A DNA stretch of 64,000 nt. It comes from an uncultured Gemmatimonadota bacterium (GTDB lineage Bacteria > JAAXHH01). Location: NCBI GenBank assembly GCA_951812955.1, contig OX638340.1:3136001-3200000 (forward strand), in the 5' to 3' direction. Below the pieces are notes generated by a model, which searched no databases, had not been told where the DNA came from, and was given only the letters and a program-made list of their open reading frames with translations. This document shows, piece after piece, positions 6,286-29,461 of this stretch; within the stretch, counting starts at the first letter, position 1; each line of letters opens with the position of its first letter. A program made the translations under genes and the position numbers.

Positions 6286-6305
6286 GGGCAGCCCCTGGAG
6301 GTAAA

Positions 6306-11082: not shown

Positions 11083-11384
11083 ATGGGGTCGATCCTTTCG
11101 GCAACCTTTATCCGTTCGTACTGAAGCGGGCCTGCTGGCAAAAAGCGCCGGCGCCTGTTCACTAACGCCGCCCGATATGGCGCTAGTGGTACAACCCGGT
11201 AATATAGGTCATCGCGGGCATTCGGGCAAACGCATTTGACATGACGGTTCCGTGCATTGGGCGATTCCTCGCCTGCTGGCATCGCCCATTTCGGTTAAGT
11301 GATCCATCCTGCTAAACTTTCTGACTGACAACCATTGAAAGTTTCGCGGGGTATCGAAAAACCGGTAATAAAGTGGTGAAGGCG

Positions 11385-12388
11385 TCCCGCGCCTAGGTGC
11401 CGTCGGGGTAGACAAGGCGGGTTATTCGGCTAGACAGATCATGGACGTATGTGAACGTCTTGTCACCGGTCAGGCCGTCGATTTCGACCTGCTTGACGCG
11501 CACGTTGCCGAGATGGTCGTAGGCGTACAGGTAGCTGACCTCGGCGGCCGGGTCAGCGTCGGTATTCTCCTCGACCTTTGCAAGGCGCCCCTGGGCGTAG
11601 TTGGGACCGCCACCCGCGATGGCATCGTTGTCTGCGGCATCGCCGTCGTCGTAGGTCATGCGGCTTCGCCACGAGGTGTTGTCGCGTTCGAAGGGGTAGG
11701 TTGCTCTCCGGATCGAGGGAGGCGAACGTGGCCGTCGCCTCGCCCACGCGCGTTACGCGGCCGAAGTCGTCGTAGATTTTGAAGGTGATTTTCTCGGTGG
11801 CGTTGCCCGTGCCTGCAGCCTTCTGCCGCGTGTCCTGTGAAAAACGCACGCGGCCCAGGTCGTCGTACTTGTAGCGGACAGGTCCGTCGGCATCGGGGTG
11901 ATGCCTGGAGGTCATGCGCCCCAGGGTGTCGTAGGCATAGCGCGAGGTGCCGCCGCCCGGCATGGTTGTCGAGACGAGGCGGTCCAGGGCGTCGTAGACA
12001 AAGGACGTTTTGTTGTTCCTGGTGGCGGCACTCGTACCCGCCGAGTCGGCTATGGCATAGCGCATGCGTCCATAGGCGTCGTAGACGCTGGTGGTCAGGA
12101 CCCCCTTTTCGTCGTCTACAGTCCGAAATGAGCGTCCCTGGCCGGACTCGATACCCCAGTTCCCGTAGCGTGAATCGACCGCGTTATCCTGTGTATGCCC
12201 GGGCGGTATGACGCGGGAGACCCTCAGCAGGGGGTCGTCGTCGTAGGAGACTTGAGTGATGCGTTCTGCCGCGTCTGCGCTGGCCAGGGCGCCGTAGGTA
12301 TGCGAAGGCGACAGGTACGCGGGTCCGAGCAGCGTATCGGGTTTATTGACGCGGTTGTAGTTCGTCTGGGTGACGATGTCGTTTGCGC
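11385..12388 (-). pseudogene. truncated, frameshifted RHS/YD-repeat fragment, copy of the core region of the main rhs gene
   Basis: ORFs 11553..12401 and 11393..11659 in two frames are near-identical to aa ~1440-1770 of the 20995..28107 protein. Homology breaks at ~12388 upstream and ~11385 downstream. No toxin tip. Confidence 0.75.
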
Positions 12389-13002
12389 CGGCTCGACGCA
12401 TGCAGCAGAAGATGCACCGACTGGGCTATGGATTGGAACCTCGATGCCAGCCTGACCCTGAATGTTATGGACTACAAACCACTGGCCGAATTCGAACGGA
12501 GGTTAACACGCATTAAGACAGTAGCTTAACTACTTGTCCCATTTTTGGGTGCACTACATGTCATTGCCATATACACGCCTGAAGGTCCGCAACGTGATCC
12601 CCTTGTTGGTAGGACCGCCGGGGTCGTTGGGATGATCTACGTATCCACCCTCATGGACTAATACATGTTCGAGGGATGGGGAGAAATTGGGTTTCATATT
12701 GGTTTCTGAATCCCTTTCGGTGGTGTGTTCTGCATTTGTTTAACCTCTGGTTACCTACACAGATGGTGTTTATAGTGCATTTCCCTCATTTATCACAGTT
12801 CCCGCTCATATGCAAACTCGCACACACCAATTCCCTTTGGGAAGGAGTTGATCGACGTTAACCGATCTTCTCAAAATTCGAACATGGAGGTCAGGCCAAC
12901 TTCATCGCATTAACGTCAGAAATACGTTTTTAACCGAAATACCAGATTCGGACTGTCGCATCTGGTATTTCGGAAATAAATGATAGGTATGAAAGTTCGA
13001 AG

Positions 13003-13326
13003 TTATAAGTCTATTAAGCCAAAAAGACGGAAAAAGCTGATTAGGTTGAAGAAAAAAGTACCAATTCCTGTTGTTACGATTAAAATTTTGGTACCTATGT
13101 CCTGTTTATCCCAGTGCTTTATGTCCTTCCAATAGGATAACATAACTAAATTGGCTATCACAGTTACTGTATAGATTGTATCTAACCCATACGCATCTAT
13201 AATGTCACCAAGGTATTCTGACAGAGTCTCCTTAGTATCCCGATAAGGGTTCCCACCGCTCCAAATGCTCCTAAGCAAAACTATCACCCCTACCAATGCC
13301 AGCACTCTACTTACTAATTTCGTCAT
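13003..13326 (-). CDS. small polytopic membrane protein, candidate immunity protein for the orphan Rhs-CT toxin at 13356..15644
   Basis: 3-4 predicted TM helices. Low-GC. Lies immediately 3' of the toxin tip. Confidence 0.45.
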   Translation of the reverse strand: MTKLVSRVLALVGVIVLLRSIWSGGNPYRDTKETLSEYLGDIIDAYGLDTIYTVTVIANLVMLSYWKDIKHWDKQDIGTKILIVTTGIGTFFFNLISFFRLFGLIDL

Positions 13327-13355
13327 CTAATGTATTTCCTAGGTTGTAGGGTTGC

Positions 13356-15644
13356 TTAGCGCTCATCGTCATCTGGAATAACCGTTTTTGCTGCTTCCTT
13401 CGCCGTATCGTACGATCCACCCTTCCGATCCGATACGAATTCTCCAGTCTTGGCATCACGATATCTCGGTCCGGTGCCATTAAAAGACGTAGGTTTTATT
13501 CTAAGCCTCGAAATGACATTTAACGTTCTCGAGGTTACCATGTTTAATAAGGTAGCCCTAATTTGGTCTGTGGCTCTTTGGGATGAGCCTTCGAAAAACA
13601 GGGCATCTGCTGTTAGTGCAAACGTTTTTGTTATATCTGCACCTGTACCTATAACTGCCGAGGCTCTTACAGAGCCTAACGATCCTGCCGTTATAAAAGG
13701 ATTCCCTGAAACCAAACCCGCACCGGCACCAACTAAACCACCAGCCACACCGTAATCTGCTCCTGCCGAAACAGCATCGCTAGCTACAATGCTAGTCTGT
13801 ATAGCTTCCTGGATCGCGTCTACTGCAGCAAACCTTAATGTACGAATCTCCGATGCTATTTTTGCATAGAGGTAGTGATGCGGCTCATGATGGCTATTTC
13901 CATCCGGATCCACATACTTGAGCGGATTGTTGTTGGCATAGGCATAGGGGCTCAATCCCGGGTACTCGCCCTGCATGGGATCGGGTCTTAAGAACCTGCC
14001 TATATCGTTAGCGTACGACCTTGCGAGCATGTAGTCAAGGCCGGACTCTGAGTCTCTCTCGTGCCCGGTGAACCGGAAATGCGTGGAACCCGTGCCACTC
14101 AATGCCAAAACCTTGCCGTAGGGCCAGTAGTCGTAGATGGCGGTGACTGTGCCTTCCTCATCCACGAGGCTTCTGGTGCTTCCGAGATGATCGGTCAGGT
14201 AGTAGCTTGCGCTACTTCCTGCTATCCGCGCTATTCTTCTGCTGCCCGCGTACACGTACCTTGCAGATAGCATCTGGCCTGAGTATTCGGCGAGTACGCT
14301 GCCGTCCGCTCCCCGCAGGTAGTAGGTGACGGCCGTTCCGACGGTTTTCTTCACGCGCCGTCGGTCCGGATCCATGAGATACCGTGCGCTGCCGTAGCCG
14401 GTGGTAAGCCCGCGGTAGTCGTAGCTCACCGTATCGGCGCCCCTTCGCGTCATCCACCCGTTTTGGTTGTAGGCGTAGATCTGCCCTCCCGTGCCGGTCG
14501 TGCTGTCCAGCCTGTTGGGTGTGGAGGATGCCGAGTAGTTGTAGGTGAGCGTGGTAGTACCTGTGACCAGGCTGGTGATATTGCCGTTCCTGTCGTAGGC
14601 GTAATCCTGCGAGGCACCGCCCGACGCGTCGAAGCCGGTGATCCGGTACAGGTCGTCGTAGGCGTAGTCCGCGGTCTTGGACGCCGCGGTGCCGTGCCGG
14701 TACACCTGCCTGGTGACGTTGCCCACGTGGTCGTAGGTGAGCGTAGACCTGAACGTGCCTGCATAGTTCAGGTCGGTGACCCATTCCCGCGCGTTGTAGG
14801 TGTAGGATCCGGTGATGGCGCCGTCTCCCGCGCCATCTCCCACTCCGTCGCCCACGGTGTGGGTGGCGATATTGCCCGCTGCGGTGTGGGTGTAAGCGAC
14901 CAGGGTCTTGCCTTGCGCATCCCACACGCGGCTGAGCCGCCCGGCGCTGTCGTAGGCGTAGCGCGCCTGGCTGCCGTCGGGGTAGATCAGGCGGGTTACG
15001 CGCCCGGCCAGGTCGTGGAGGTATGTGAGCGTCTTGTCGCCGGCCAGGCCGTCGATTTCGACCTGCTTGACACGCACGTTGCCGAGATGGTCGTAGGCGT
15101 AATGATGGATGACCTCGGTCGCCGCATCCGCGTCGGTATTCTCCTCGACGTTGGTCAGGCGCCCCTGGGCGTAGTTGGGCCCGTCGCCTGCGGCATCGCC
15201 GTCGTCGTAGGTCATGCGGCTGCGCCAGGAGGTGGCATCGGTCTCGAAGGGGTAGGTGCTATCGGGATCGAGGGAGGCGAACGTGGCCGTCGCCTCGCCC
15301 ACGCGCGTTACGCGCCCGAAGGCATCGTACACGGTGTAGGTAACCTTGCCGGTGCCGGCAGCGCGCTGCCGCGCGTCCTGTGAAAAACGCACGCGGCCCA
15401 GGTCGTCGTACTTGTATTGCGTGGCCCCGTCGGCATCGGGGTGATGCCTGGAGGTCATGCGCCCCAGGGTGTCGTAGGCATAGCGCGAGGTGCCGCCGCC
15501 CGGCATGGTGGTCGAGGTGAGTCGGTCCAGGGCGTCGTAGGCGAAGGATGTTTTGTTGTTGCGGGTAGCAGCGTCCGTGCCCGCCGAGTCGGCTATGGCA
15601 TAGCGCATGCGGCCGTAGGCGTCGTAGACGCTGGCGGTTGCCAC
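13356..15644 (-). CDS. orphan RHS C-terminal cassette (YD repeats + DPDG switch + glycine-zipper-rich toxin tip)
   Basis: Near-identical to the main rhs through YANNNPLKYVDPDG, then a unique ~190-aa C-terminus with GVAGGLVGAGAGLVSG. Homology continues upstream to ~15848, where an in-frame TAG sits. Confidence 0.75.
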   Translation of the reverse strand: MATASVYDAYGRMRYAIADSAGTDAATRNNKTSFAYDALDRLTSTTMPGGGTSRYAYDTLGRMTSRHHPDADGATQYKYDDLGRVRFSQDARQRAAGTGKVTYTVYDAFGRVTRVGEATATFASLDPDSTYPFETDATSWRSRMTYDDGDAAGDGPNYAQGRLTNVEENTDADAATEVIHHYAYDHLGNVRVKQVEIDGLAGDKTLTYLHDLAGRVTRLIYPDGSQARYAYDSAGRLSRVWDAQGKTLVAYTHTAAGNIATHTVGDGVGDGAGDGAITGSYTYNAREWVTDLNYAGTFRSTLTYDHVGNVTRQVYRHGTAASKTADYAYDDLYRITGFDASGGASQDYAYDRNGNITSLVTGTTTLTYNYSASSTPNRLDSTTGTGGQIYAYNQNGWMTRRGADTVSYDYRGLTTGYGSARYLMDPDRRRVKKTVGTAVTYYLRGADGSVLAEYSGQMLSARYVYAGSRRIARIAGSSASYYLTDHLGSTRSLVDEEGTVTAIYDYWPYGKVLALSGTGSTHFRFTGHERDSESGLDYMLARSYANDIGRFLRPDPMQGEYPGLSPYAYANNNPLKYVDPDGNSHHEPHHYLYAKIASEIRTLRFAAVDAIQEAIQTSIVASDAVSAGADYGVAGGLVGAGAGLVSGNPFITAGSLGSVRASAVIGTGADITKTFALTADALFFEGSSQRATDQIRATLLNMVTSRTLNVISRLRIKPTSFNGTGPRYRDAKTGEFVSDRKGGSYDTAKEAAKTVIPDDDER

Positions 15645-16367
15645 GCCCTTCTCATCGTCTACGGTCCGGAACGACCGTCCCTGGCCGGACTCGGTGCCCC
15701 AGTTCCCGTAGCGTGAATCGACCGCGTTATCCTGTGTATGCCCGGGTGGTATGACGCGGGAGATCCTCAGCAGGGGGTCGTCGTCGTAGGTGGTCTGGAT
15801 GATGCGTTCTGCAGCGTCTGCGCGGGCCAGGGCGCCGTAGGTATGCTAGGCGGCCGGTGCACAGACCTGAGGACGTGCTTGGGAAGGCTCGTCCGGTTGT
15901 ATCTCGATCGGGCTTCTACATCGCCGGCGCCAGACCCAACTCTGGTCTGTATACAGAGCGCCAGGGTCTATAATCCGCCTGGTACAGTATCAGCCACATA
16001 GGCGAAGTCTGTTGCACAGAACAAGACATCGTCGGTCCACCAATGGTCATGACCGGCCGTATCATTACGGACAGACCGACCTATGAGACTGTATAGAGGC
16101 ACACCGAGGTCGTTTATGATGTTCTGATGTTTTCATTTGTGAGCCTTCTGCATTTACTCTCAACTGACCACCGACAAAAGTGAAACCGGGCTTGCCACGA
16201 CACCTGATCTACCAAAACAGTGGGTTTAGCCAGACCGGAAGAATCCATTGAGTACGGTACCTATAAAACAACTCTGTCCTTGCTTCAAAATAACACAGGA
16301 CCTGGACAAGCTGCGTTCCTATCAACAGCAGGCAACAACCTGTCCAGGAACCCGGCATATACCCAAC

Positions 16368-17036
16368 CTATTGCGGAAAATGTCGTTGATCGAACGTGAC
16401 GGACCAACTCCCTTCTGCCCAACTTTTTGGCGATAGCTTGACTGTTGTATCATTGATCCACTGCAATGCACCAAAGTACTTATCAAATACAAACTCGTCA
16501 GGCATATCCGTAACAACAAGGACCCTGTCTAGAATCTCTTTGGAACGGTTTCTGAGCTGGATGTAAATCCGGATCTCTTCGATTTCGTGTTCGACGAAGA
16601 CCTCGGCGACAAGGCGCCTTCCATTTCTCCACCAGACGCGTTTCCGCCAGGTCCACTGATTCACAAAGTTAAGGTCCAAGACCGCTTGCCGGGCTTTCTC
16701 GTATGGCTCAATGTCCCATCCATAAGCCCGCGTCACGATCTCGATGCCCCGGAATAACCAATTCAATGCCTTGTGTTTCTTCTCATATGCGCTGAGTTCA
16801 AAGAAGGCCAATGGATCATCCTTGATTTGTAGCTCGAGACATCCAAGCATGTCTAGTACATTCTGCCTTTTTGGCTGTGGCACGATAAAGACCGATATCT
16901 TCCATGCTTTTCCTGACTCACGAGGTGGTGTGAAATGCCTCTGGAACAAGGCGAGTACTGATCGTGTCTCATTTACAAATCGATGACTAGTCCACCACTC
17001 TAGTTTGGGTGCGTATAGACCAAACTGTCTTATCAT
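16368..17036 (-). CDS. hypothetical protein, candidate immunity protein for orphan Rhs-CT 2
   Basis: Low-GC 222-aa ORF directly 3' of the toxin tip at 17062. Confidence 0.4.
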   Translation of the reverse strand: MIRQFGLYAPKLEWWTSHRFVNETRSVLALFQRHFTPPRESGKAWKISVFIVPQPKRQNVLDMLGCLELQIKDDPLAFFELSAYEKKHKALNWLFRGIEIVTRAYGWDIEPYEKARQAVLDLNFVNQWTWRKRVWWRNGRRLVAEVFVEHEIEEIRIYIQLRNRSKEILDRVLVVTDMPDEFVFDKYFGALQWINDTTVKLSPKSWAEGSWSVTFDQRHFPQ

Positions 17037-17061
17037 GATTTCTCCTGGGGTTGGACTTCGG

Positions 17062-18918
17062 TCAGGGTTGCTGCTGCCTAATTAACTTTTGTCCTTCACT
17101 ACGCAATCGGTCCGAAGCTGCCTTCTCGGCCTCAAGCGCGGCCTGTCGCCCCGGAACATCGGTTTCAACTATCCGTGCCGAATAGGTTCCAGCCCCCTCT
17201 TGGCGGTTGAACGCATTTACCTGCGTGTTCGCACGGGGTGATGTACCGTCTACGTTAAGCGGCCTACCACTGATTCCCGTTTTGACCACATCACCAGTTT
17301 CTGTGTTGTAGATTTCGTATCGATGTTGCGGCTTGGTACTGAGTTTCGAGTTACCATGAATCGCGCTTCTAGCAGCGTCCGCCGCGTCGGCGCCTTGATC
17401 TGCCGCACGAGTTCCTCGTAGTACTTTAATGAGCGTACCGGCACCACCTGGCACGCCTGGAGCAATGGTTGCCGCCACATCCACGACGAGGCCGACCGCA
17501 TCAAGTGCTGCCCAACCGTAACTGCCCTAGCGGATATTCTGAGCCAGCGACGCCGCACCAATCCCGATGTTGACGACATCCCAGATTGTCTCGGCGGCTC
17601 TTCCATCCGGATCCACATACTTGAGCGGATTGTTGTTCGCATAGGCATATGGACTGATCCCCGGATACTCGCCCTGCATGGGATCGGGCCGCAGGAACCT
17701 GCCGACATCATAAGCGTACGACCTTGCGAGCATGTAGTCAAGGCTGGACTCTGAGTCTCTCTCGTGGCCGGTGAACCGGAAGTGCGTTGAGCCGGTGCCG
17801 CTCAAGGCCAGAACCTTGCCGTAGGGCCAGTAGTCGTAGGCGGCGGTGACGGCGCCTTCCTCATCCACGAGGCTTCTGGTGCTTCCGAGATGATCGGCCA
17901 GGTAGTAACTTGCGCTGTCTCCCGCTATTCGGGCGATCCGCCTGCTGCCGGCGTACACGTACCTGGCAGAGAGCGTCTGACCCGAGTATTCGGCCAGGAC
18001 GCTGCCGTCTGCGCCGCGCAGGTAGTAGGTGACGGCGGTCCCGACGGTCTTCTTCACGCGCCGTCTGTCGGGATCCATGAGATACCGTGCGCTGCCGTAG
18101 CCGGTGGTAAGCCCGCGGTAGTCGTAGCTCACCGTATCGGCGCCCCTTCGCGTCATCCACCCGTTGGGGTTATAGGCGTAGATCTGCCCTCCCGTACCGG
18201 TGGTGCTGTCCAGCCGGTTGAGTGTGGAGGCGGACGTGTAGTTGTAGGTGAGCGTACTGGTACCTGTGACCAGGCTGGTGATATTTCCGTTCCTGTCGTA
18301 GGCGTAGTCCCGGCTCGCGCTGCCCGACACGTCGAAGTCCGTGATCCGGTACAGGTCGTCGTAATCGTAGTCCGCGGTTATGGACGCGGCGCTGCCGTGC
18401 CGGTGCACCTGCCTGGTGACGTTGCCCGCGGGATCGTAGGTGAGCGCGGACTTAAACTTACCCGCATAGTTCAGGTCGGTGACCCATTCCCGCGCGTTGT
18501 AAGTGTAAGCACCAATGACGATGCCGTCTCCCGCGCCATCTCCCACTCCGTCGCCCACGGTGTGGGTGGCGATGTTGCCCGCTGCGGTATGGGTGTATGC
18601 TGCCAGGGTTTTGCCTTGCGCATCCCACACGCGGCTGAGCCGCCCGGCGCTGTCGTAGGCGTAGCGCGCCTGGCTGCCGTCGGGGTAGATCAGGCGGGTT
18701 ACCCGCCCAGCCAGGTCATGGACGTATTCCAGCGTCCTGGCGCCGGTGAGGCCATCGATGGTCACCTGCTTGACGCGCACGTTGCCCAGGTGATCGTAGG
18801 CGTAGAGGTGGGTGACCTCGGCGGTCGCGTCGACGTCGGTGTTCTCCTCGACTTTGGTCAGACGCCCCTGGGCGTAGTTGGGTCCGCTGGAGACGGCATC
18901 GCCGCCGTCGTAGGTCAT
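17062..18918 (-). pseudogene. orphan RHS C-terminal cassette 2, interrupted by an in-frame TAG at 17527-17529; toxin tip possibly GIY-YIG-like
   Basis: ORFs 17527..18918 and 17062..17484 are in the same frame, separated by a single amber codon. RHS homology through VDPDG, then a unique tip containing HRYEIYNTETGDVVKTGIS. Confidence 0.7.
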
Positions 18919-19291
18919 GCGGCTGCGCCAGGAGGTGTTGTCGGGGTGACGCGGATGAGGCCGTGTTTACTCGGAGTAATTGGGCTTGCTAGGAGCGGAT
19001 AGTGAGTAAAGCACTTACCTAGTATGTCGCCTTTGCATGCGACGGGTCCAATCCGACCGGCTACCGTTGCGTCGAAGGCGGCCTGAAGCCACTCAGTCGT
19101 TCAGCCTTGTCCTAAATTGTCAGCATGATTTGCTGAGATTGGTTTTCTTGATTCTCTACAACAAATGTCTGACGCTCAATTCTCATTGTAGCATCTGTCT
19201 ATCCAACGTAGCAACTATGAACTCCATCGAATAAACCATTCAAACATCCAAGCCGACGTACCTACAGGACATTGTTAGTCCGTTCAGAAGC

Positions 19292-20170
19292 CTAAGGATC
19301 TATGTCGTCAAGGCGTATGTCTGTCGATCTAACCGATACCGTTCTCAATTTCGGACTGTCCCTGTTGCCAATTTCATATGTCCACTCTTTGTGCAGATAC
19401 ATCGTATCATGACCGGTTCCCATATCCAGTTCTTCAGTCTCACATCGCCCTACAAGCGTATCATCGGTTAACTCGTATTCATTTGAAAGCAGCCTGAAAT
19501 CTCGCGGATGCCCCTTATACTGCGTTAGCTGAATCCAATCAGCTACAAACTCGTCGACACTTTCTCGGCTTTGCTTGGGAACATGCTCAAGTTTGGGATA
19601 CTGCAATTGGTCATTATATGATACATACGCCGTTGTGTCATCTGGGGAATGGATTCTCTCCTCAAAACCGTTAAGTTTTAAAAACGCAAAGTGCTTTCCC
19701 AGATCCAACTCTTCGAAGGCTGGCCCATAATCTCTTGCTATAATTCCCAGTTTGTAAGGATAAGATTCTGGCGAATCAGGTGGGTAGGCCATATATACAT
19801 CTATCCCAATAAACTTCCGCTGTTGCAATTCACACCTGTAGTCTTTTATACGATCGAGTGTGGGAAACGACAGGCTCTCCAACTTCGTTAACGCTTCATT
19901 TATCGATCCGGGACGATCCTCTTGGATATTGTTGTTATGTTTTTCTTTTGCATTAACGGATTCATCGCGCTTGAACCAATTTCTGAGTTTAAGAATGGCT
20001 GTTTCATATTCAAAATACGCTACATAGTATCGACACAACTCAGCATATCGTCCTTCGTCTTTACTTTGATCCGATTCCTCGGCATACATATTCATTGTAA
20101 AAAAGAAGCACCATATAGATGCCACAGATAACCTTCTTGTTGAACTACTCATGTTGGTTCTTTTGTTCAT
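19292..20170 (-). CDS. secreted hypothetical protein, paralog of 20167..20979 (immunity-like)
   Basis: N-terminal hydrophobic signal. Shares DEFVADWIQLTQYKGHPRDFRLLSNEYELTDDTLVGRCETEEL with the neighbour. Low GC. Confidence 0.5.
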   Translation of the reverse strand: MNKRTNMSSSTRRLSVASIWCFFFTMNMYAEESDQSKDEGRYAELCRYYVAYFEYETAILKLRNWFKRDESVNAKEKHNNNIQEDRPGSINEALTKLESLSFPTLDRIKDYRCELQQRKFIGIDVYMAYPPDSPESYPYKLGIIARDYGPAFEELDLGKHFAFLKLNGFEERIHSPDDTTAYVSYNDQLQYPKLEHVPKQSRESVDEFVADWIQLTQYKGHPRDFRLLSNEYELTDDTLVGRCETEELDMGTGHDTMYLHKEWTYEIGNRDSPKLRTVSVRSTDIRLDDIDP

Positions 20171-20979
20171 GGAGACACACTCGGTACTGAAGCATTGTCA
20201 TCACTCGACGATTCGCGAGTTCTATCAAACAACTCATGAAGATCATTTCGTACTTCACGTGACAGCTCTTTCAAGACCGGCGTGCCTTCATTCGGTATTT
20301 TGTACTTCCATAGTTTATATACAACAGTCCCCTTTGGAATCAACGGTCCGTGGTGTAATTCGGCTGTTGTACAAATTCCCAAAACGTCGCCGTTTTCTAA
20401 CTGATACACGTTGGATAGTATCCTGAAAAAGTTGGGATGATCATTGAACTGCGTAAGATGAACCCAGTCCGAAACGAATTCCTCCATTTTTTTCGGATCT
20501 TCAACTGGCACGTCTTTACTACTGAAATCCAGCCAGTCGTCATATGAGAATTTAGTCAAGACCAGTCCGCCCCACGTGTTTTCTTCGTAAAACCCATAAA
20601 AGCGAACAATGTTAAATTGATCGTCTATGCCGATTTTGTACGGTTTACTATCGGATATCCCTCGTCGGACCATGAATACATCATAGGTCAGGAATCTTCG
20701 AGGTAACCTGCTAGTGGGGAAATTAAACACTTGTATGATTTCATGATCCATTGGTATAGGAATTTTACTGACCAGTGCTTCGTACATATCGGGGCGGTCC
20801 CAATTGGCGTCTTGTGATGAGTCCATCAGCGTGCGTTTCTTGTACGCGACGGTTGTCGCTAATTCAAAGAAGGCAACGTAGTGTCTAATTACCTGTGCTT
20901 TCACGCTGTATCCGATTTTCTGTTGGTCATCAGCATCGACCAACATCAGTCCCGCCAGAACACACCAGACCGCCCCCAT
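20167..20979 (-). CDS. secreted hypothetical protein, candidate cognate immunity protein of the main Rhs toxin
   Basis: Starts 16 nt after the rhs stop. Paralogous to 19292..20170 (EEFVSDWVHLTQFNDHPNFFRILSNVYQLENGDVLGICTTAEL). Confidence 0.5.
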   Translation of the reverse strand: MGAVWCVLAGLMLVDADDQQKIGYSVKAQVIRHYVAFFELATTVAYKKRTLMDSSQDANWDRPDMYEALVSKIPIPMDHEIIQVFNFPTSRLPRRFLTYDVFMVRRGISDSKPYKIGIDDQFNIVRFYGFYEENTWGGLVLTKFSYDDWLDFSSKDVPVEDPKKMEEFVSDWVHLTQFNDHPNFFRILSNVYQLENGDVLGICTTAELHHGPLIPKGTVVYKLWKYKIPNEGTPVLKELSREVRNDLHELFDRTRESSSDDNASVPSVSP

Positions 20980-20994
20980 TACTACTCACCTCCT

Positions 20995-23900
20995 CTACTG
21001 TTGCTGCTGTTTCTCAAGTTCTTCCCACTGTTTCCTGAACTTTTCCTGGGCTTCTTTAGCTCTTATTTCGTGAGGTTGATCGTCGTAATCGTACATAGCC
21101 TTCTCAAGCTCTGTTTGTTTGTAGAACTTCGTTGTGCTTTCTATCGATTCGAGTTTTCCTAGTGCTTCGGCAATGTGGAATAGTTCTTCTATCATAGTAC
21201 TCTCTACCATTCCTGCATTACCCTTAATCAACGCCTCATTGATATATGCCACTGAACCTGTTTGAGGGATTATCACCTCTTCTATTTCATCGATGGTTCT
21301 GGCGAAGGCAGGAAAATACCGGAAGTGTATCTGGGCAAGTCCACGGTACGTTTCACCGTCTGGAGCGATATCAAAAACGAATTCCTGAGTAGCTTTATGT
21401 ACATGGTTGTACAACTGATTCCCGATTTCTGTCTTCCTCAGGTTGGCGAAATAGCCCTCGAATCGTTTCCTTTCTACGATCGACAGATCAGATGAGAGTT
21501 TGATAACCCTCCCATCCGGGTCCACATATTTAAGCGGATTGTTGTTGGCATAGGCGTACGGGCTCCGTCCCGGATACTCGTCCTGCATGGGATCGGGCCG
21601 CAGGAATCGGCCTATATTGTAAGCATACGTCCTTGCAAGCATGTAGTCAAGGCCGGACTCGGCGTCTCTCTCGTGGCCGGTGAATCTGAAGTGCGTCTGC
21701 TCTGATCCGCCGGATGCCAGGATATCGCCGTAGGGCCAGTAATCGTAGGCGGCGGTGACCGTGCCTTCCTCATCCACGAGGCTTCTGGTGCTTCCGAGAT
21801 GATCGGTCAGGAAGTAGCTTGCGCTACTACCTGCTATCCGCGCTATTCTTCTGCTGCCCGCGTACACGTACCTTGCAGATAGCATCTGACCCGAGTATTC
21901 GGCCAAGACGGATCCGCCTGGTCCCCGCAGGTAGTAGGTGGTCACCGTGCCTACGGTCTTCTTCACGCGCCGTCTGTCGGGATCCATGAGATACCGTGCG
22001 CTGCCGTAGCCGGTGGTAAGCCCGCGGTAGTCATAGCTCACTGTATCAGTGCCCTTGCGCGTCATCCACCCGTTCGGATTGTAGGCGTAGTTCTGCCCAC
22101 CGGTGCCGGTGGTGCTGTCCAGCCTGTTGGGTGTGGAGGCGGACGTGTAGTTGTAGGTGAGCGTACTGGTACCTGTGACCAGGCTGGTGATATTTCCGTT
22201 CCTGTCGTAGGTGTAGTCCTGCGAGGTACCGCCCGACACGTCGAAGCCGGTGATCCGGTACAGGTCGTCGTAATCGTAGTCCGCGGTTATGGACGCGGCG
22301 CTACCGTGCCGGTACACCTGCCTGGTGACGTTGCCCACGTGGTCGTAGGTGAGGGCGGACTTGAACGTGCCGGCATAGTTCAGGTCTGTGACCCATTCCC
22401 GCGCGTTGTAGGTGTAGGATCCGGTGATGGCGCCGTCTCCCGCGACGTCGCCCACTCCGTCGCCCACAACGTGGGTGGCGATATTACCCGCGGCGGTGTG
22501 GGTGTAAGCAGCCAGGGTCTTGCCTTGCGCATCCCACACGCGGCTGAGCCGCCCGGCGCTGTCGTAGGCGTAGCGCGCCTGGCTGCCGTCGGGATATATG
22601 AGCCTGGTGATGCGCCCAGCCAGGTCGTGGACGTATTCTACCGTCTTGTCGCCGGTCAGGCCGTCGATGTCGACCTGCTTGACGCGCACGTTGCCGAGAT
22701 GGTCGTAGGCGTACAGGTAGCTGACCTCGGCGGTCGCGTCGGCGTCGGTGTTCTCCTCGACGTTGGTCAGACGCCCCTGGGTGTAGTTGGGTCCACCGCC
22801 TGCGGCATCACCGTCGTCGTAGGTCATGCGGCTTCGCCAGGAGGTGGTATCGCGTTCGAAGGGGTAGGAGCTTTCGGGATCTAGGGAGGCGAACGTGGCC
22901 GCTGCCTCGCCCACGCGCGTTACGCGCCCGAAGGCATCGTAGACGGTGTAGGTGATTTTCTCAGTGGCGTTGCCCGTGCCTGCAGCCTTCTGCCGCGCGT
23001 CCTGTGAAAAGCGCACGCGGCCCAGGTCGTCGTACTTGTAGCGGACTGGTCCGGCGGCATCGGGGTGATGCCTGGAGGTCATACGCCCCAGGGTGTCGTA
23101 GGCGTAGGTGGTGGTGGCGGTCAGCGGCCTGGCGGTAGTGCCTCTCTCTGGCATGGTGGTGGAGATGAGGCGATCCAGGGCGTCGTAGACAAAGGACGTC
23201 TTGTTGTTGCGGGTAGCAGCGTCCGTGCCCGCCGAGTCGGCGATGGCATAGCGCATGCGTCCGTAGGTGTCGTAGACGCTGGTGGTTGCCACCCCCTTCT
23301 CATCGTCTACGGTCTGGAACGATCGTCCCTGGCCGGACTCGATACCCCAGTTCCCGTAGCGGGTATCGACCGCATTATCCTGTGTGTGCCCGGGCGGGAT
23401 GACCTGCGATACCCGCAGGAGGGGATCGTCGTCGTAGGAGACTTGAGTGATGCGTTCTGCCGCGTCTGCGCGGGCCAGGGCGCCGTAGGTATGCGAAGGT
23501 GCCCGGTATACGGGACCAAGCAGGGTTTCGGGTTTATTGACGCGGTTGTAGTTCGTCTGGGCGACGATGTCGTTTGCGCCGGCGCTGGCGCGGGTCTGTA
23601 TCTGCCTGGCCAGGCCGTCGAAGGAGGAGGCCACCATCTCGGCGGCGCCGACGTAGAGGTTTGCGAGATATCCGTTTCCGGTCTCTCCCCGGGCCCTGAA
23701 GGCGGGCGTCCAGTTCGCGGGGACGGAGACCGAGGCCGACGCGCCCTTGAAGCGGGTCGTCTCATGACCGTAGAGCCACGCGTTCACGGTGCCCGTGGGC
23801 TGGAGCTCCATCTCCACGCGGGCCCAGGGCCATCTCCGGATGTATCCGGGCACGAAGGCCGAGGAGGCGGTCTGTCCGTCCACCCTGCTTTCAAGTTTTA

Positions 23901-26900
23901 CGGATCCGTTCTCGTAGACCACGCGGACGTGGTCGTCCCCGTCCTCGAAGGCCATGATGACGGTTTTTCCCGAAGATGCCGAGGCCGGATGAAAGTCGGC
24001 CCTTGCGGTGACGTGGCCGCCGACTCTTCCGGTTTCCAGGACGGAGGAGGGTCCGAGTTTCACGGACCGCTTCCCTGCCTTCTCCTGGTTATAGGCGACT
24101 CCCCCGCTGCCGGTGACCTGATCTTCGCCTGCCTGGGGGTCGATCGCAGCGCGGAACTCCGCGCCGGCCTTCGCCTGGAAACCGGTCGTCAGACGTACGC
24201 GTACACTGGCGCGCAGATCCACGGTCTCGCCGGAGGCGATGACGTAGGGGGCATCGGTTTCAAGACTGACGCCCTCCTCGAGGCGGTCGCCCGTGCCGCG
24301 GGCTACGATCCGGTGTCCGTCTCTGGAGAGATCCTTGTGGCCGTCCCTGGAAGGATAGGCGATAACGGTCTGCCGGTTCGGTCTGGCGGTGTTGTACGCG
24401 CTGAAACCGCCGATGCCGCGCGAGAAGCGGTGGTCCCGCTGGGCGGTTATGCGTCCCCTGCTGTCGCTTGCCTGAACGACACGCCTGAGACCGTCCCTCA
24501 GGTACCTCTCGGTATGTCCGTTCGGATCGGTGACGGCGACGGCGTCCAGCGTTACGGGATCCCAGGTGGTCATGACGCCGGGCTGAGCGCCCTGGGGCCA
24601 TACGCGCAGGTTGTCGAAAGCGGCGGCGCCTTGCAGCGCGCCGTTGGCCAGCTTCACGGCGTCTACGACGCCTCTGCGGCCCCTCATGTCCCAGACACCG
24701 GTTGTCGGATAGCGCACGCCGTCCACGTGGGCCCACCATCGCCCGTTCTTCCAGGCGATGCGCAGGCGGTGCCATCGGCCTGGTTCATAGTCGGCGCCGG
24801 TGTCTGTGAGGGCCCCGGACTGGATCACCCGGATGTGTCCGTCCCGGTCGAAGATCCACTGGATGCGGTTCCGTCCCAGGGTTATTTCGGTGCGCTCTCC
24901 GGTGGTCGGCACCCTGACGTCGATCTCGAACACGCCGGCGTCCAGGACGGTCAGGGTACGTTCGGCCACGGCATTGTCCACGGAGAGTGCGCCGCCCTCC
25001 AGGGTGATCGCGCTGCGCCGCCTGTTGTCGGTCCTGCGCCACGAGCCCGCGGCGGTGAGCGCGTCCCAGCCGGCAAGGTCGTCGAAGACCTCGGCGGTCA
25101 CCTGCGAGCCGGAGGCGCCGGTGAAGGCGGCCACGGGCCGCATCCTGCCGTAGCCCATGACCGTGGTGGTGACGGTGCCATGGGCGTCCTGTGCCTCGAT
25201 CAGGTTGCCGTAGGCGTCGTAGCCGGTGGCCACCTCCCGGTCGATCCACTCGCTCGGGCTCACCTGGCCGTCGCTGTCCTTATCGAGCCATACCGAGGTG
25301 GTATCCGGCATGACGATGCTACCTCCGTTGAACCGCCCATAGCGGTACCTGGTGGACTGCAGCCGGGCGCCGGATCCGTCCTTGACCGTGACCACGTGAG
25401 GGCGGTCCAGGATGTGTGCATTCTCCAGGAACACGTCATCGGGATCGTCGGCGTTCTTCCCGGCGACCTGGATATCCTTTGCGTATATCCTGATCTTGCG
25501 GTACACGGCCTGCTGCGGCTTGTATACGCCGGCGTAAAGCGTGAGATTGACTCGGGCGCTGTCCGTGTTCGAAGGTACAGGTACAAGGACGTCGAAGGAT
25601 TCCTCCTTCGGATCGGGCAGCCCGCCGGCTACAGGCACAACATGCGTTAGCGATGCTGCCGAACGGTAACCGCCGTCCTTCCAGTCGACAGTCACCGTGG
25701 CGCCGGCGTACATGTTGTCTCCGCCCTGCAACTGATCGGTCCCGAGGACGCCGCGGATGTGCAGCACATCGGTGCCGGACACGGAGAAGCGGCGGCCCTC
25801 GAAATCGTAGAATCCGGCGCTCTCAGTGACTGAGCCCGCATTCAGGAAGGCCTCCACCGAGGCCGTGGGCGGATCGTCCCGGCTCAGGAAGGCGGCGTGG
25901 ACCCGGTCACCGGTCGAAATGGATGTGTCGAGGACAGGCTGTCCGAAGGCCAGGGCCACCGGACTGCTTGTTACCGCATCTGCGTGATAGCTGGTCTCCG
26001 TGACGCGCAGGGTACGGGACCCGGATTTGAGCGTCTGCGTTGCCACTAGGCCGTTCCTGGCGTTGTGCGTCTGCTGTGTCGTGGTACTTACCCCGTCCCT
26101 GGTGGTCGTCGTCTCCCCTGCTCGCAACCAGTAGGCCTGCTGGGGGATACCCGGATGGTAGAAACTCTGCGACTCGCCGGTCCAGGTTCCCTGGGTCGTG
26201 ACCTGCCAGTCCGTCCGCTCCCGCTGGACCACTGCGCCAATACCGTCGTGCCAGGTTACCTCCTTGAGGAGCCCTCTTCGGATATCGCGTTCGGATTCGT
26301 GCTGCTTGTTCCTGGCCGAAAGCCCCAGGGCGTTCAAGTCGGCTTCGCCTACGAAGTTGCGGCGTATCTTGCCATGGGGCCCGGGCAGGATCTCGTCGAC
26401 GATGGGGAAAGTGATGCGGCGCACGCGATTGGCATTGACGGTCTCCATGACCGCATCGGTCTGGACGTAGACGAACGTAGTCGTATCCGCTACCGCGCCG
26501 CCCAAGCCGTCCGCGTCCCATATCCTGCGCTTGATGCGGCGGGACCGGTCGAAATAGGCGTCATCGTAAGCAAGCGAGGTGTCAGGATTTGTAATCTCCT
26601 CGTAGTCTATCTTCATCTCCCCGCCCGTGGGCGCGACGATCTTCGTAATACGGTAGCTGTCCGCAAGGGTGTTGGTGAAGCGATACGGCGGCAACTGGTC
26701 GCCGGCCGAGTTCCCTGTTCCCTTGATGGCGATTTCCTCGAGCAGCAGCGTGCGCGCATTATCCCCCGAGGCTACGGCAGGCCGCGGAGGACCGCCGTTG
26801 GCGCCGTTGTAGCGGAAGACGTATCGGGCGATCTGATTGCCATCCACGTCCGTAACCTTCAGGGCATCGAGACGGTGCGTACTCGCAAGGCCGTCGTACA

Positions 26901-28107
26901 TCCGGTAGTTCCGGTTGTCGGTGACCAGGTGATGGCCGTAGGACAGGGTCTCACCGGACGGCGTGTCGAAGTAGTTGTCATAGGTGATCACCACACCACC
27001 GCGAGAGGCAATCTGGATGTCGGGCCTGGCGCTGGTCTCGGTCGTGATCTTGCGTACGACCTTGCCATCTGTGCCGGCGAGGATGACCGTGTCGAGGTGC
27101 GCCGTGTTAAACGTCTTGACTACGGTCAGGTTGGTGCGGCTCTGACCAACCGTTATCCCGCCGGGAAACCGCGGGTCGATGTCCGCGTAGTCGAGCAGGT
27201 TGCGAAAAGAGCGCGTGGTTTCGGCCCGTTCCCTCGCCCTGTCCCGCACGGTGGTCACCGGACCGTCAGAGGTATACCGGAAGCGGATCGTGTTGCCGGC
27301 CTGGTCCCGGATCTCGGCCAGGTTCCACTGGTATACCATCTCGGGCATGAGTTCGTTGAAACCCCCCTGCTGTACCGCGCCGCCCTTGACGGTCTGGTTC
27401 ATGCCGTAGTCCTTGCCCGAGATCGTAACGGCGCCGAAAGTGTAGACCAGGCCCGATACGGTCTTGACCGTCCAGGTGGAGGAAAGCGGCGCATTCCTGT
27501 CGAAGTTCCACCTGATGTCCATGAAGCGCCTGTTCTCGGCGTAATAGACGTTGGTGGCGGGTAGCGCTACTCCCGGAGTGGCGGCGCGCTGCGAGTCGTC
27601 CAGTTGTCTGACGAGACGGTGGGAGCCGTCGGGAAGCACCAGGGAGAGATTGAAGGAAAAAGGATGGTTGATGGGACTACTCACGTCGCGCAGGTTGTAG
27701 CCGCCGGTCACCCTGATGGCCCCGAACTCCAGGTTCCATCCCAGGCCCACCCACGTGGCGTTATTGAGCGTAACCGTGCCCTTGCTGTTGGACTTGATCT
27801 GCTCGGCCGTGCCCAACTTGATCAGACGGTCGGTACCCGTCACCGCGCTGCTGTAGCGCATGCGAATGGGCAGGGACATGCCGCCCGCGCCTTCGACGTC
27901 GCCTAGCGGCACCGCGTAGGACCAGTTGCCCGAAAAGTAGTCAACCTGATCCGCGTCTATGACGCCGGAGAGGCTGTCGAAGTCGTAGGCGCTCTTGGAG
28001 GCATCTGTGATCGGCGTCTGCTGGCCGTGAACGATTGGCGCCGCCGTGGAGAGCATGAGGATGCCGATGAGCATCCTCACAGCGAAACAGCACAGGTGTC
28101 TTTGCAT
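20995..28107 (-). CDS. giant RHS/YD-repeat polymorphic toxin with Sec signal, SpvB-like N-terminal region and C-terminal toxin domain
   Basis: ATG at 28107 with SD AAAGGAG. Signal MQRHLCCFAVRMLIGILMLSTAAPIVHG. SpvB/TcB-like GLGWNLEFGAIRV. Long run of YD repeats. RHS core end YANNNPLKYVDPDG followed by a unique 200-aa tip. Confidence 0.85.
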   Translation of the reverse strand: MQRHLCCFAVRMLIGILMLSTAAPIVHGQQTPITDASKSAYDFDSLSGVIDADQVDYFSGNWSYAVPLGDVEGAGGMSLPIRMRYSSAVTGTDRLIKLGTAEQIKSNSKGTVTLNNATWVGLGWNLEFGAIRVTGGYNLRDVSSPINHPFSFNLSLVLPDGSHRLVRQLDDSQRAATPGVALPATNVYYAENRRFMDIRWNFDRNAPLSSTWTVKTVSGLVYTFGAVTISGKDYGMNQTVKGGAVQQGGFNELMPEMVYQWNLAEIRDQAGNTIRFRYTSDGPVTTVRDRARERAETTRSFRNLLDYADIDPRFPGGITVGQSRTNLTVVKTFNTAHLDTVILAGTDGKVVRKITTETSARPDIQIASRGGVVITYDNYFDTPSGETLSYGHHLVTDNRNYRMYDGLASTHRLDALKVTDVDGNQIARYVFRYNGANGGPPRPAVASGDNARTLLLEEIAIKGTGNSAGDQLPPYRFTNTLADSYRITKIVAPTGGEMKIDYEEITNPDTSLAYDDAYFDRSRRIKRRIWDADGLGGAVADTTTFVYVQTDAVMETVNANRVRRITFPIVDEILPGPHGKIRRNFVGEADLNALGLSARNKQHESERDIRRGLLKEVTWHDGIGAVVQRERTDWQVTTQGTWTGESQSFYHPGIPQQAYWLRAGETTTTRDGVSTTTQQTHNARNGLVATQTLKSGSRTLRVTETSYHADAVTSSPVALAFGQPVLDTSISTGDRVHAAFLSRDDPPTASVEAFLNAGSVTESAGFYDFEGRRFSVSGTDVLHIRGVLGTDQLQGGDNMYAGATVTVDWKDGGYRSAASLTHVVPVAGGLPDPKEESFDVLVPVPSNTDSARVNLTLYAGVYKPQQAVYRKIRIYAKDIQVAGKNADDPDDVFLENAHILDRPHVVTVKDGSGARLQSTRYRYGRFNGGSIVMPDTTSVWLDKDSDGQVSPSEWIDREVATGYDAYGNLIEAQDAHGTVTTTVMGYGRMRPVAAFTGASGSQVTAEVFDDLAGWDALTAAGSWRRTDNRRRSAITLEGGALSVDNAVAERTLTVLDAGVFEIDVRVPTTGERTEITLGRNRIQWIFDRDGHIRVIQSGALTDTGADYEPGRWHRLRIAWKNGRWWAHVDGVRYPTTGVWDMRGRRGVVDAVKLANGALQGAAAFDNLRVWPQGAQPGVMTTWDPVTLDAVAVTDPNGHTERYLRDGLRRVVQASDSRGRITAQRDHRFSRGIGGFSAYNTARPNRQTVIAYPSRDGHKDLSRDGHRIVARGTGDRLEEGVSLETDAPYVIASGETVDLRASVRVRLTTGFQAKAGAEFRAAIDPQAGEDQVTGSGGVAYNQEKAGKRSVKLGPSSVLETGRVGGHVTARADFHPASASSGKTVIMAFEDGDDHVRVVYENGSVKLESRVDGQTASSAFVPGYIRRWPWARVEMELQPTGTVNAWLYGHETTRFKGASASVSVPANWTPAFRARGETGNGYLANLYVGAAEMVASSFDGLARQIQTRASAGANDIVAQTNYNRVNKPETLLGPVYRAPSHTYGALARADAAERITQVSYDDDPLLRVSQVIPPGHTQDNAVDTRYGNWGIESGQGRSFQTVDDEKGVATTSVYDTYGRMRYAIADSAGTDAATRNNKTSFVYDALDRLISTTMPERGTTARPLTATTTYAYDTLGRMTSRHHPDAAGPVRYKYDDLGRVRFSQDARQKAAGTGNATEKITYTVYDAFGRVTRVGEAAATFASLDPESSYPFERDTTSWRSRMTYDDGDAAGGGPNYTQGRLTNVEENTDADATAEVSYLYAYDHLGNVRVKQVDIDGLTGDKTVEYVHDLAGRITRLIYPDGSQARYAYDSAGRLSRVWDAQGKTLAAYTHTAAGNIATHVVGDGVGDVAGDGAITGSYTYNAREWVTDLNYAGTFKSALTYDHVGNVTRQVYRHGSAASITADYDYDDLYRITGFDVSGGTSQDYTYDRNGNITSLVTGTSTLTYNYTSASTPNRLDSTTGTGGQNYAYNPNGWMTRKGTDTVSYDYRGLTTGYGSARYLMDPDRRRVKKTVGTVTTYYLRGPGGSVLAEYSGQMLSARYVYAGSRRIARIAGSSASYFLTDHLGSTRSLVDEEGTVTAAYDYWPYGDILASGGSEQTHFRFTGHERDAESGLDYMLARTYAYNIGRFLRPDPMQDEYPGRSPYAYANNNPLKYVDPDGRVIKLSSDLSIVERKRFEGYFANLRKTEIGNQLYNHVHKATQEFVFDIAPDGETYRGLAQIHFRYFPAFARTIDEIEEVIIPQTGSVAYINEALIKGNAGMVESTMIEELFHIAEALGKLESIESTTKFYKQTELEKAMYDYDDQPHEIRAKEAQEKFRKQWEELEKQQQQ

Positions 28108-28293
28108 GGTGAACTCCTTTAACATGGATGAATTGGAAAGGGGGTTGAATGAAACGCGCGATGTCAACGCATGGATGTATCGGATGAAGACCGGCATGAT
28201 GCGCTCCTTGATGGCGGACGGAACAGCCGCCCGGCATGGATCCTGCAACTCGTTATCGGGATGTGAGACTGAAGTCTTTGCGGGCATGAAATG

Positions 28294-28336
28294 AAAAACC
28301 CCCGTGCCGTGGGTCGATCAGAAGTAGCACGGGGAC
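28294..28336 (-). terminator. Rho-independent terminator downstream of 28566..29390
   Basis: Minus strand reads CCCCGTGCtacttctgatcgacccacGGCACGGGGGTTTTT. Confidence 0.55.
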
Positions 28337-28390
28337 GCTAGAAGGTCCGCGGGGTGCGGGTCCGCTAAGGGGACGCGAGGGTATTCTGAT
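28294..28390 (+). repeat. 97-bp repeat copy A (terminator hairpin + conserved 60-nt segment)
   Basis: About 96% identical to 35844..35940. CCCCGTGC..GCACGGGG stem with a T-run on the minus strand. Confidence 0.8.
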
Positions 28391-29390: not shown

Positions 29391-29461
29391 GAATTGCTCC
29401 TTTCTGCGGTTAATGGAAATTGTGTCTCTGCGATCCTCATGGGACTGCGGGTTTCCGGTCA

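Follow-up and report, generated by a model that had tools for sequence, protein, structure and literature searches.

The 64-kb stretch of contig OX638340.1 analysed here (the window) carries what is, with a probability of roughly 85%, a chromosomal Rhs polymorphic-toxin array of a sponge-associated, Gemmatimonadota-like bacterium. It consists of a full-length main rhs gene, two displaced cassettes (B and C), and several decayed remnants, and its relevant genes lie on the minus strand throughout. An earlier note had proposed an Rhs polymorphic-toxin locus with four stretches of RHS core on one strand. At the sequence level, the first proposal passes the comparisons of family signatures, unrelated tips, tip–gene linkage, and tip switching, and blastn and tblastn of the full gene against the window recover the four stretches on the minus strand. 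The copies are named A (full-length gene), B and C (orphans), and D (fragment), and positions within the rhs gene (e.g., 4705–5722) are query positions of the full gene in blastn. The main components are as follows:

20995..28107, minus strand: full-length rhs gene, with signal peptide, N-terminal region, YD repeats, RHS core up to YVDPDG, and tip A
21511..23583, minus strand: core A, the part of the full gene repeated in the orphans (gene positions 4705-6779; GC content 0.626)
20995..21510, minus strand: tip A, 171 amino acids (aa), of a rare, putatively zincin-like family (GC content 0.434)
21175..21189, minus strand: EELFH motif of tip A (HExxH in relatives)
20167..20979, minus strand: immA1, 270 aa, candidate immunity gene for tip A, with a short N-terminal hydrophobic segment
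19292..20170, minus strand: immA2, 292 aa, tandem paralogue of immA1, with a signal-peptide-like N-terminus
about 17600..18943, minus strand: orphan B core, 5'-truncated, in frame (87.1% nucleotide identity; gene positions 5436–6779)
17062..17601, minus strand: tip B, a Gly-rich pre-toxin module and a Tox-URI2 nuclease domain, broken by a TAG at 17527..17529
16368..17036, minus strand: immB, 222 aa, candidate immunity gene for tip B, with no hydrophobic segment
about 13899..15872, minus strand: orphan C core, 5'-truncated, in frame (86.8% nucleotide identity; gene positions 4781–6776)
13356..13898, minus strand: tip C, 180 aa, with a Gly/Ala/Ser-rich centre and no known family
13003..13326, minus strand: immC, 107 aa, candidate immunity gene for tip C, predicted to encode a small integral membrane protein

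Family signatures are clear. The full gene matches the RHS/YD-repeat profiles PF05593 (E 1.6e-13) and TIGR01643 (E 1.4e-14), both of which are also found in orphan C (TIGR01643 with E 5.9e-16), and the RHS-associated core profile TIGR03696 is present in both (E 2e-20 for the full gene, at aa 2183-2259 of its open reading frame (ORF); E 1.6e-21 for orphan C). The motifs GRFLRPDP and YVDPDG occur in copies A, B, and C, the core ending in PLKYVDPDG in all three. From the structures of TcC and Rhs proteins, we take GRFxxxDP and DPxG to hold the two conserved Asp of a C-terminal aspartyl autoprotease. In the PDB, the sequence relatives comprise Rhs-family proteins, Tse5, and mosquito SGS1/SGS4, with matches confined to the C-terminal core.

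The similarity of copies B and C to the full gene stops exactly at the last-Gly codon of ...YANNNPLKYVDPDG (YVDPDG), and the conserved switch point postulated earlier can thus be placed at this codon. Beyond it, tips A, B, and C are mutually unrelated, as previously proposed (best pairwise BLASTP E 0.24), and at least six tip types are found on the conserved core in the related loci (designated below by L numbers). The GC content falls from 0.63–0.64 in the cores to 0.43–0.57 in the tips and 0.38–0.47 in the genes behind them, in agreement with the low-GC gene reported after each tip. The cores themselves had been called near-identical, with shared repeats of 1.4-2.3 kb, and both statements have to be corrected: nucleotide identity to the full gene (blastn) is 87.1% for B, 86.8% for C, and 84.7% for D, and the shared cores measure 1.35, 2.0, and 1.0 kb, respectively. 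The longest exact match is 64–95 nt among A, B, and C, and 23 nt for the B–D pair.

Each tip is closely followed by a partner gene, with 15–30 nt from the tip stop codon to the downstream ORF and a Shine-Dalgarno-like site before each partner. For immA1, the ATG lies 15 nt past the tip A stop and is preceded at 7 nt by AGGAGG, while the immA1 stop and the immA2 start overlap (ATGA). These two had been described as duplicated immunity genes. They are indeed tandem paralogues (E 7e-29), but, with only 26% aa identity, they are a tandem pair of old standing, not recently duplicated genes. Tandem paralogous pairs also follow other tips, in L002 (41%), L003 (58%), and L004 (89%). No Pfam or NCBIfam family matches any of the four downstream genes. 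The tip–partner association is maintained across genomes: tip A and the immA family are linked in the window, L002 (immA1 homologue at 74%), and L011 (39%); tip B and immB in the window, L002 (immB at 65% aa), and L020 (89% aa); and tip C and immC in the window, L001, L003, and L012. The ratio of nonsynonymous to synonymous substitution rates (dN/dS, ω) of immB is 0.15, which indicates purifying selection.

The comparison with other genomes provides the evidence for tip switching. In a genome scan, proteins with 75–80% identity were found only in sponge-associated metagenome-assembled genomes (MAGs) labelled Gemmatimonadetes or Latescibacterota. Some of the relatives' records are titled as complete chromosomes (OY762445.1 and OZ241838.1), and L001 and L004 come from such records; OY762445.1 contains three rhs loci (L001, L007, and L011). 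Loci L001, L003, and L004 are syntenic with the window, adjoining matching clpX-like/thiDN genes, and share its layout, in which a full-length gene comes with orphan cassettes and a core fragment lacking a tip adjoins the clpX-like gene at the end of the array. The genes for immunoglobulin (Ig)-domain proteins found upstream of the window array are also seen at L001. The main genes of L001, L002, L003, L004, and L011 carry tips other than A, while tip A, which belongs to the main gene in the window, is found as an orphan in L002 and L011. Taken together, these differences constitute natural evidence of tip switching.

Such repeated cores could also be the product of faulty assembly, the copies having been collapsed or mis-joined from different strains or loci, in which case the array would not lie on one chromosome. 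The source looks metagenome-derived, judged by its relatives; related genomes carry several rhs paralogues (three loci in OY762445.1); and short-read MAG contigs often break within rhs genes (L005, L008, L009, L010, and L012). Nevertheless, copies that differ by 13–15%, with no exact match longer than 95 nt, are not collapse-prone repeats, and every junction is coherent, with in-frame cores, tips, Shine-Dalgarno sites, and partner genes. Relatives at chromosome level show the layout of main gene, orphans, and terminal fragment at the matching genomic site, and an independent metagenome contig (L020, 88% nucleotide identity) is collinear with window positions 15967–18101, which span core B, tip B, immB, and the next gap. 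The syntenic long-read loci and the copy divergence of about 13% argue against an artefact, which is highly improbable. The warning that the region is assembly-prone was, therefore, overstated, as independent long-read chromosomes show a matching architecture.

The cores also bear traces of recombination. Local identity along them is mosaic, ranging from 72 to 96% per 150 nt. Among the informative sites of A, B, and C, 141 adjacent-same patterns were counted vs. 84.9 ± 7.2 expected, a value reached in none of 10,000 permutations, which points to exchange among the core copies. The last 900 nt of the core cluster by genome, not by tip type. The possibility that cores travel with their tips was rejected, since core segments group by genome rather than by tip. 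Across copies A–D, dN/dS is about 0.2 and dS is 0.35–0.42 (dN/dS vs. A: 0.19 for B and 0.21 for C), and cores B and C keep their reading frame through 1.3–2.0 kb.

Tip B is the only one of the three to match a known family. Its Tox-URI2 domain (PF15653) is detected with an E-value of 2e-14 and 54.1 bits (gathering cutoff of 20) over 76 of 86 profile positions, and is preceded by the Gly-rich pre-toxin module. Two orphan toxin cassettes had been reported, and both are present, but the one with tip B contains an in-frame TAG (17527..17529) that had been missed, where L002 and the metagenome contig L020 have GAG (Glu). As tip B shows an ω of 0.11 vs. L002, the stop codon is either recent or a sequencing error. 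The pre-toxin module is also found elsewhere: at L003 5889-6461, it is joined (62% identity, residues 4-88) to a different C-terminal domain with ...AQAHHDLPQ..., which looks, by its motif, like an AHH/HNH-type nuclease, and it occurs on other Rhs cores in metagenome contigs L021-L024. The L003 fusion therefore points to modular shuffling below the level of the tip.

Tip A has no Pfam, NCBIfam, or PDB relative, and a word-seeded homologue search for it was empty. An exhaustive HMMER scan of 1.84 billion representatives yielded no more than four true relatives, each an Rhs C-terminus, and two further matches (P0002 and P0006) were discarded as low-complexity repeat proteins. Three of the four relatives contain HExxH, as HEIFH or HEMQH (P0003, P0004, and P0005), and the fourth, the L002 orthologue (P0001), contains EExxH. 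Both the window tip and this orthologue have EELFH at the position aligned with HExxH, so that the first His of the motif defining zincins is a Glu; the family is invariant at the motif Glu, at the second His, and at several Glu further downstream, and the motif falls in a helix predicted by AlphaFold2 (AF2). Tip A can be read, from these alignments, as deriving from a small zincin-like HExxH toxin family in which the first metal ligand has changed. The AF2 model, built on a five-sequence alignment, is poor (predicted local distance difference test, pLDDT, of 48.7), and its Foldseek search, with no match at E ≤ 0.001, was disregarded. Further HExxH/HExxxH tips are found in related loci (L002 20433, L011 16613, and L004 17172, with LLHEADH, LDHEVDH, and AHELFGH), with no Pfam match. 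Exported-looking partner genes, often as tandem pairs, follow them.

Tip C likewise has no Pfam, NCBIfam, or PDB relative, and its word-seeded search was empty. Single-sequence and profile searches of the PDB with tips A and C gave chance-level matches only (E ≥ 0.07). Apart from the window, relatives of tip C occur in L001, L003, and L012, and only after Rhs cores. Its centre is 49% Gly/Ala/Ser, with 14 small-xxx-small motifs. By their sequences, two of the three tips (A and C) are undescribed families.

These elements suggest a mode of action. The Rhs shell would encapsulate the tip, autoproteolysis at ...DPDG would release it, and the gene after each tip would neutralise that tip in the producer and its kin. 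The predicted topology of the partners fits the putative sites of toxin action. Tip B would be, or would have been, a URI-fold nuclease acting in the cytoplasm, because immB has no export signal; the lack of a hydrophobic segment in immB also suits a nuclease toxin. Tip A would be a zincin-like enzyme, or a derivative of one, acting outside the cytoplasm, since its partners have signal-peptide-like N-termini (immA2 and the L011 immA homologue). Tip C may act on the membrane, as its partner immC, in which residues 1-26 and 81-105 form hydrophobic segments, is predicted to be a small integral membrane protein. New tips would enter the main gene via homologous recombination in the shared core, which would push older tips to orphan positions, where they decay. 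The immunity genes of displaced tips may stay useful against neighbours still firing those toxins.

The N-terminal part of the protein bears on its delivery. The rhs ORF comprises 2430 codons, from 28287 to 20995, or 2370 aa when counted from the Met at 28107. This Met is likely the start, since it is preceded by an AAGGAG site and followed by a signal peptide conserved in orthologues, which also backs the gene extent of 20995..28107 given earlier. The 60 codons upstream of 28107 are not consistently in frame in orthologous and paralogous genes. The signal peptide, MQRHLCCFAVRMLIGILMLSTAAPIVHG, with its VHG|QQ-type end, is conserved in six genes (L001, L006, L007, L008, L010, and L011). About 240 nt upstream of the start (28108-28350, minus strand) are highly conserved with the paralogous L007 as well as with L001 and L008, and not with L006, L010, or L011, a pattern which suggests a leader or promoter duplicated along with the gene. 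Three features can be distinguished in the N-terminal part:

28024..28107, minus strand: predicted Sec signal peptide MQRHLCCFAVRMLIGILMLSTAAPIVHG (KD19 of 2.05; cleavage putative)
25414..25776, minus strand: second beta-sandwich domain, of moderate confidence (residues 778-898; AF2 pLDDT of 60-79)
24589..25026, minus strand: ConA-like/LamG lectin-type beta-sandwich (residues 1028-1173 from the Met at 28107, ending in ...FDNLRVWPQG; AF2 pLDDT of 76-88)

The N-terminal region is a lineage-specific, beta-rich stretch of about 1400 aa. In a collection of 5.8 billion proteins, only eight homologues were found, and those named in NCBI are labelled as Gemmatimonadota/Gemmatimonadetes MAGs. No Pfam family matches the N-terminal ~1500 residues above threshold, SpvB, RHS_repeat, and DUF6443 being sub-threshold. 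As the AF2 model of residues 89–1200 is poor overall (pLDDT of 45), only its two better-defined beta-sandwich domains are usable. The Foldseek matches of this model are to galectins, the lectin domain of calreticulin, laminin LG, and the lectin modules of sialidases (probability of 1.0, E down to ~1e-9 to 1e-5). As Foldseek gives no query ranges, these matches are assigned to the C-terminal of the two domains (24589..25026), the confidently modelled part, to which they would belong.

No PAAR/DUF4150 domain was detected in the N-terminal 1600 aa, even at E-values up to 1, and no type VI secretion system (T6SS) gene was found among the large ORFs of the window. Thus, neither the PAAR/VgrG-interacting N-terminus nor the linked T6SS genes that characterise T6SS-delivered Rhs effectors are seen within the window. 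Since it has a predicted Sec signal peptide, while the window lacks a PAAR domain and T6SS genes, the Rhs protein is assigned, by its sequence features, to the Sec-dependent class of Rhs toxins, and its export would begin through Sec rather than through the T6SS. A Tc-toxin BC assignment does not apply, as SpvB is only sub-threshold (E 0.013, 15 bits vs. a cutoff of 22) and TcdB_toxin_mid domains are lacking, while the upstream 1941-aa gene encodes an Ig/cadherin-repeat protein, not a TcA.

The Rhs protein might also act on cells of the sponge or other eukaryotes, in the manner of Tc-toxin BC, teneurin, or SGS1. The best PDB sequence match of the core is mosquito SGS1 (E 7.8e-24), the N-terminal region is modelled with ConA-like/LamG lectin-type domains, and all relatives come from sponge-associated MAGs; the lack of a PAAR domain and of T6SS genes in the window is also compatible with such a role. 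However, each tip is tightly linked to, and inherited together with, a partner gene, which is the hallmark of toxins harmful to the producer's own kind. In addition, one tip belongs to a nuclease family typical of interbacterial polymorphic toxins, the orphan candidate immunity genes are kept under purifying selection, and no TcA-like gene was found in the window. A host-directed toxin is, therefore, very unlikely, and the interbacterial polymorphic-toxin array is preferred.

A more ambitious proposal combines several of these elements. The locus would represent a T6SS-independent, Sec-exported Rhs class confined to sponge-symbiont Gemmatimonadota, with a lectin-like, receptor-binding N-terminus of about 1400 aa, displayed at the surface as a contact-dependent "bacterial teneurin". 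It would bring with it two new toxin families, an EExxH zincin derivative, whose immunity proteins would be exported, and a Gly-zipper-like membrane toxin, whose immunity protein would be a small membrane protein. As a whole, this combination is tentative, with the odds against it.

The array also contains remnants of decay, located mostly at its downstream end:

15845..16021, minus strand: decayed, out-of-frame core remnant upstream of orphan C (tblastn 37% to ORF aa 1540-1598, in another frame)
12934..12973, no strand: palindrome of ~40 nt directly after the immC stop (inverted blastn self-match, 88%)
12554..12697, minus strand: truncated GH108-type muramidase gene, first 47 codons (PF05838, E 7.9e-13)
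12468..12558, plus strand: relic of an IS3-family insertion sequence (IS), with the terminal inverted repeat and the last ~20 transposase codons (alignment with L011, L001, L007, and L004)
11380..12392, minus strand: fragment D, a dead internal core piece split over two frames (84.7% nucleotide identity; gene positions 4705–5722)

Fragment D had already been recognised as dead and tip-less, and it shows a frameshift near 11700, an in-frame stop, no PDG motif, and no tip. The inter-cassette remnants had escaped the earlier note, namely the IS3 end relic, the GH108 fragment, and the decayed piece of core (15845..16021). Between immC and fragment D lie, in order, the 40-nt palindrome, which may be a terminator or a REP-like element, the start of the GH108 gene (47 codons), and the IS3-family end, with which the GH108 gene is cut off (IS inverted repeat TGTAGTGCACCC...). 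A complete copy of this IS, with rve and HTH_Tnp_1 domains, is found in L007 (about 17612-18840). In L011, L004, and L001, truncated cores are directly preceded on their 5' side by relics of the L007-type IS, and IS activity may thus contribute to the 5' truncations. Tip-less terminal fragments adjoin the clpX-like gene in all four syntenic loci. A single ancient terminal fragment is, nevertheless, unsupported, as these tip-less fragments vary in extent and their overlapping parts share only 69–71% identity.

Several observations weigh against the preferred reading of the locus. Firstly, tip B is inactivated by a single GAG→TAG change, and, with fragment D dead, IS debris present, and the GH108 gene truncated, part of the array amounts to a fossil record, not to a reservoir that can be used. 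Secondly, sequence divergence of about 13% should depress RecA-mediated exchange. With exact runs of at most 95 nt in addition, main/orphan recombination should, by this comparison, be much rarer than in Salmonella, and switching may operate only on evolutionary time. Thirdly, the first zinc-binding His of tip A is replaced by a Glu, and, judging by this motif, the catalytic activity of the tip may be changed or lost. Its ω of 0.45 vs. L002 denotes only moderate constraint, and its zincin fold is suggested by motif and secondary-structure order only, as the tip A model is poor. Finally, the absence of T6SS genes applies to the 64-kb window only.

Taken to the extreme, the orphans would be mere fossils of displacement and IS damage, never reused, with only the main gene and the immunity genes being functional. 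The nonsense codon in tip B, the frameshifted and tip-less fragment D, the IS3 relic and truncated GH108 gene within the array, the IS relics found in L011, L004, and L001 just 5' of truncated cores, and the depressed exchange expected at 13% core divergence are all in line with such a graveyard. However, orphan cores B and C have stayed in frame over 1.3–2.0 kb with an ω of about 0.2, tip C is intact, and tip B was strongly constrained until very recently (ω of 0.11). The mosaic cores show exchange between copies, and one tip family is found in the main gene of one genome and as an orphan in others. A pure graveyard is, therefore, unlikely, although it is the most serious of the alternatives considered. 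The earlier proposal of an arrangement allowing tip switching holds as regards the cross-genome tips and mosaic cores, while the idea of a reservoir is weakened, the array being partly a graveyard.

The array is flanked by a ThiD-ThiN fusion gene (8199-9545, minus strand) and a gene for a ClpX-like AAA+ ATPase (9571-11082, minus strand), the latter scoring below the ClpX equivalog cutoff (307 vs. 359 bits). Both genes mark a conserved insertion site in L001, L003, and L004. An archaeal origin, to which the ThiD-ThiN fusion had pointed, was discarded, since the relatives are all bacterial MAGs. Two co-directional genes lie upstream of the main gene and encode proteins of 299 aa (28566-29465, minus strand), with a hydrophobic N-terminal segment, and 1941 aa (29462-35287, minus strand), with Big_9, Big_2, and cadherin-like repeats. 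These proteins share a homologous C-terminal region of ~120 aa (...PADYVF..YDLM.L....HIR..GHLPG...MQT.LLEK.EEL.LY.I.QH...) with a coiled-coil end. Conservation of the two genes is limited to the syntenic rhs locus (L001, L006, and L008). No upstream accessory gene is common to all rhs loci among those compared, and a shared accessory gene was rejected, as the Ig-domain genes are confined to the syntenic locus. Further along the window, a defence-type cluster (43375-51120, plus strand) comprises a UvrD-like helicase–PD-(D/E)XK nuclease fusion (43375-46239), an N6/N4 DNA methylase (46307-48274), and a Type III restriction res-subunit helicase (48277-51120). Scans of the window for tRNAs and Rfam families returned nothing, and a promoter/terminator scan from 11 to 29.6 kb was uninformative (10 promoter-like sites vs. 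9.4 expected, and 14 terminator-like sites vs. 15.2 expected). In an exact-sequence look-up, the Rhs protein and ThiDN had no record.

With this array, the Rhs main-plus-orphan arrangement extends to an uncultured sponge-symbiont lineage with several such loci per genome, which suggests strong kin-discriminating antagonism in the dense sponge microbiome. The understanding of the Rhs mechanism itself is unchanged; the interest lies in the undescribed tips and in the T6SS-independent, lectin-bearing N-terminus. Two uncharacterised candidate toxin/immunity pairs are supplied, the tip A family counting only about five members among 1.84 billion representatives. Together with L001–L004, L011, and L020, the window forms a comparative series with cassettes in main and orphan positions. 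It also raises a mechanistic question, namely how a Sec-exported, lectin-bearing Rhs protein delivers its tip from a likely diderm cell.

Among known systems, the rhs-main/rhs-CT-orphan locus of Salmonella enterica Typhimurium (Koskiniemi et al. 2014, PMC3967940) and the Rhs loci of E. coli and Dickeya offer the same arrangement of a full-length rhs gene and its immunity gene, followed on one strand by 5'-truncated orphans with core, tip, and immunity gene, the immunity genes of the window being candidates. In these loci as in the window, core homology ends at PxxxxDPxG, the tip/immunity cassettes are lower in GC than the core, and tips are proposed to be switched by recombination in the shared core. 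In Salmonella, recombination between main gene and orphan over 522 bp at 95% identity generates a novel rhs gene of full length, after duplication of the locus (PMC3967940), while the corresponding homology in the window is 85–87% over 1.0–2.0 kb. The window further differs in containing two orphans, a dead fragment, and IS debris, and in its host, an uncultured sponge-symbiont lineage. The N-terminus is PAAR/VgrG-linked in Salmonella, whereas it consists here of a Sec signal peptide and a lineage-specific, lectin-bearing region of ~1400 aa.

The Rhs/T6SS arrays of the bee-gut bacteria Snodgrassella and Gilliamella (Steele et al. 2017, PMC5727410; PMC8125069) also belong to host-associated symbionts and include long, strain-variable orphan tip/immunity arrays, which have been interpreted as traces of antagonism between bacteria and of recombination (PMC5727410; PMC8125069). 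They are, however, T6SS-delivered (VgrG/PAAR-linked), whereas no T6SS component is found in the window or consistently upstream in the related loci. The CdiA-CT/CdiI orphan arrays and Neisseria MafB cassettes resemble the window in that the delivery gene is conserved, the switch motif is sharp, and orphan cassettes with short upstream homology lie downstream. They differ in their delivery, by two-partner-secretion filamentous CdiA or by MafB, in having no RHS shell, and in their switch motif (VENN or similar vs. DPxG). As regards single tips, tip B resembles other polymorphic toxins in carrying its Tox-URI2 (PF15653) match behind a Gly-rich pre-toxin module, but the window copy has a premature TAG, and the module sits on a different C-terminal domain in L003.

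As regards export, a close parallel is offered by Bacillus subtilis WapA and other Sec-dependent YD/Rhs toxins, in which, too, an N-terminal Sec signal and YD repeats precede the RHS core motif and a C-terminal toxin that varies, with an immunity gene (a candidate one in the window) downstream and no T6SS involved. WapA-type toxins have been classed as signal-peptide/type II secretion system (T2SS)-type (Zhang et al. 2012, PMC3482391). The N-terminal region in the window is unrelated to that of WapA, and its host is likely diderm, given the Gemmatimonadota labels of its relatives, so that, compared with WapA, an extra step across the outer membrane would be needed.

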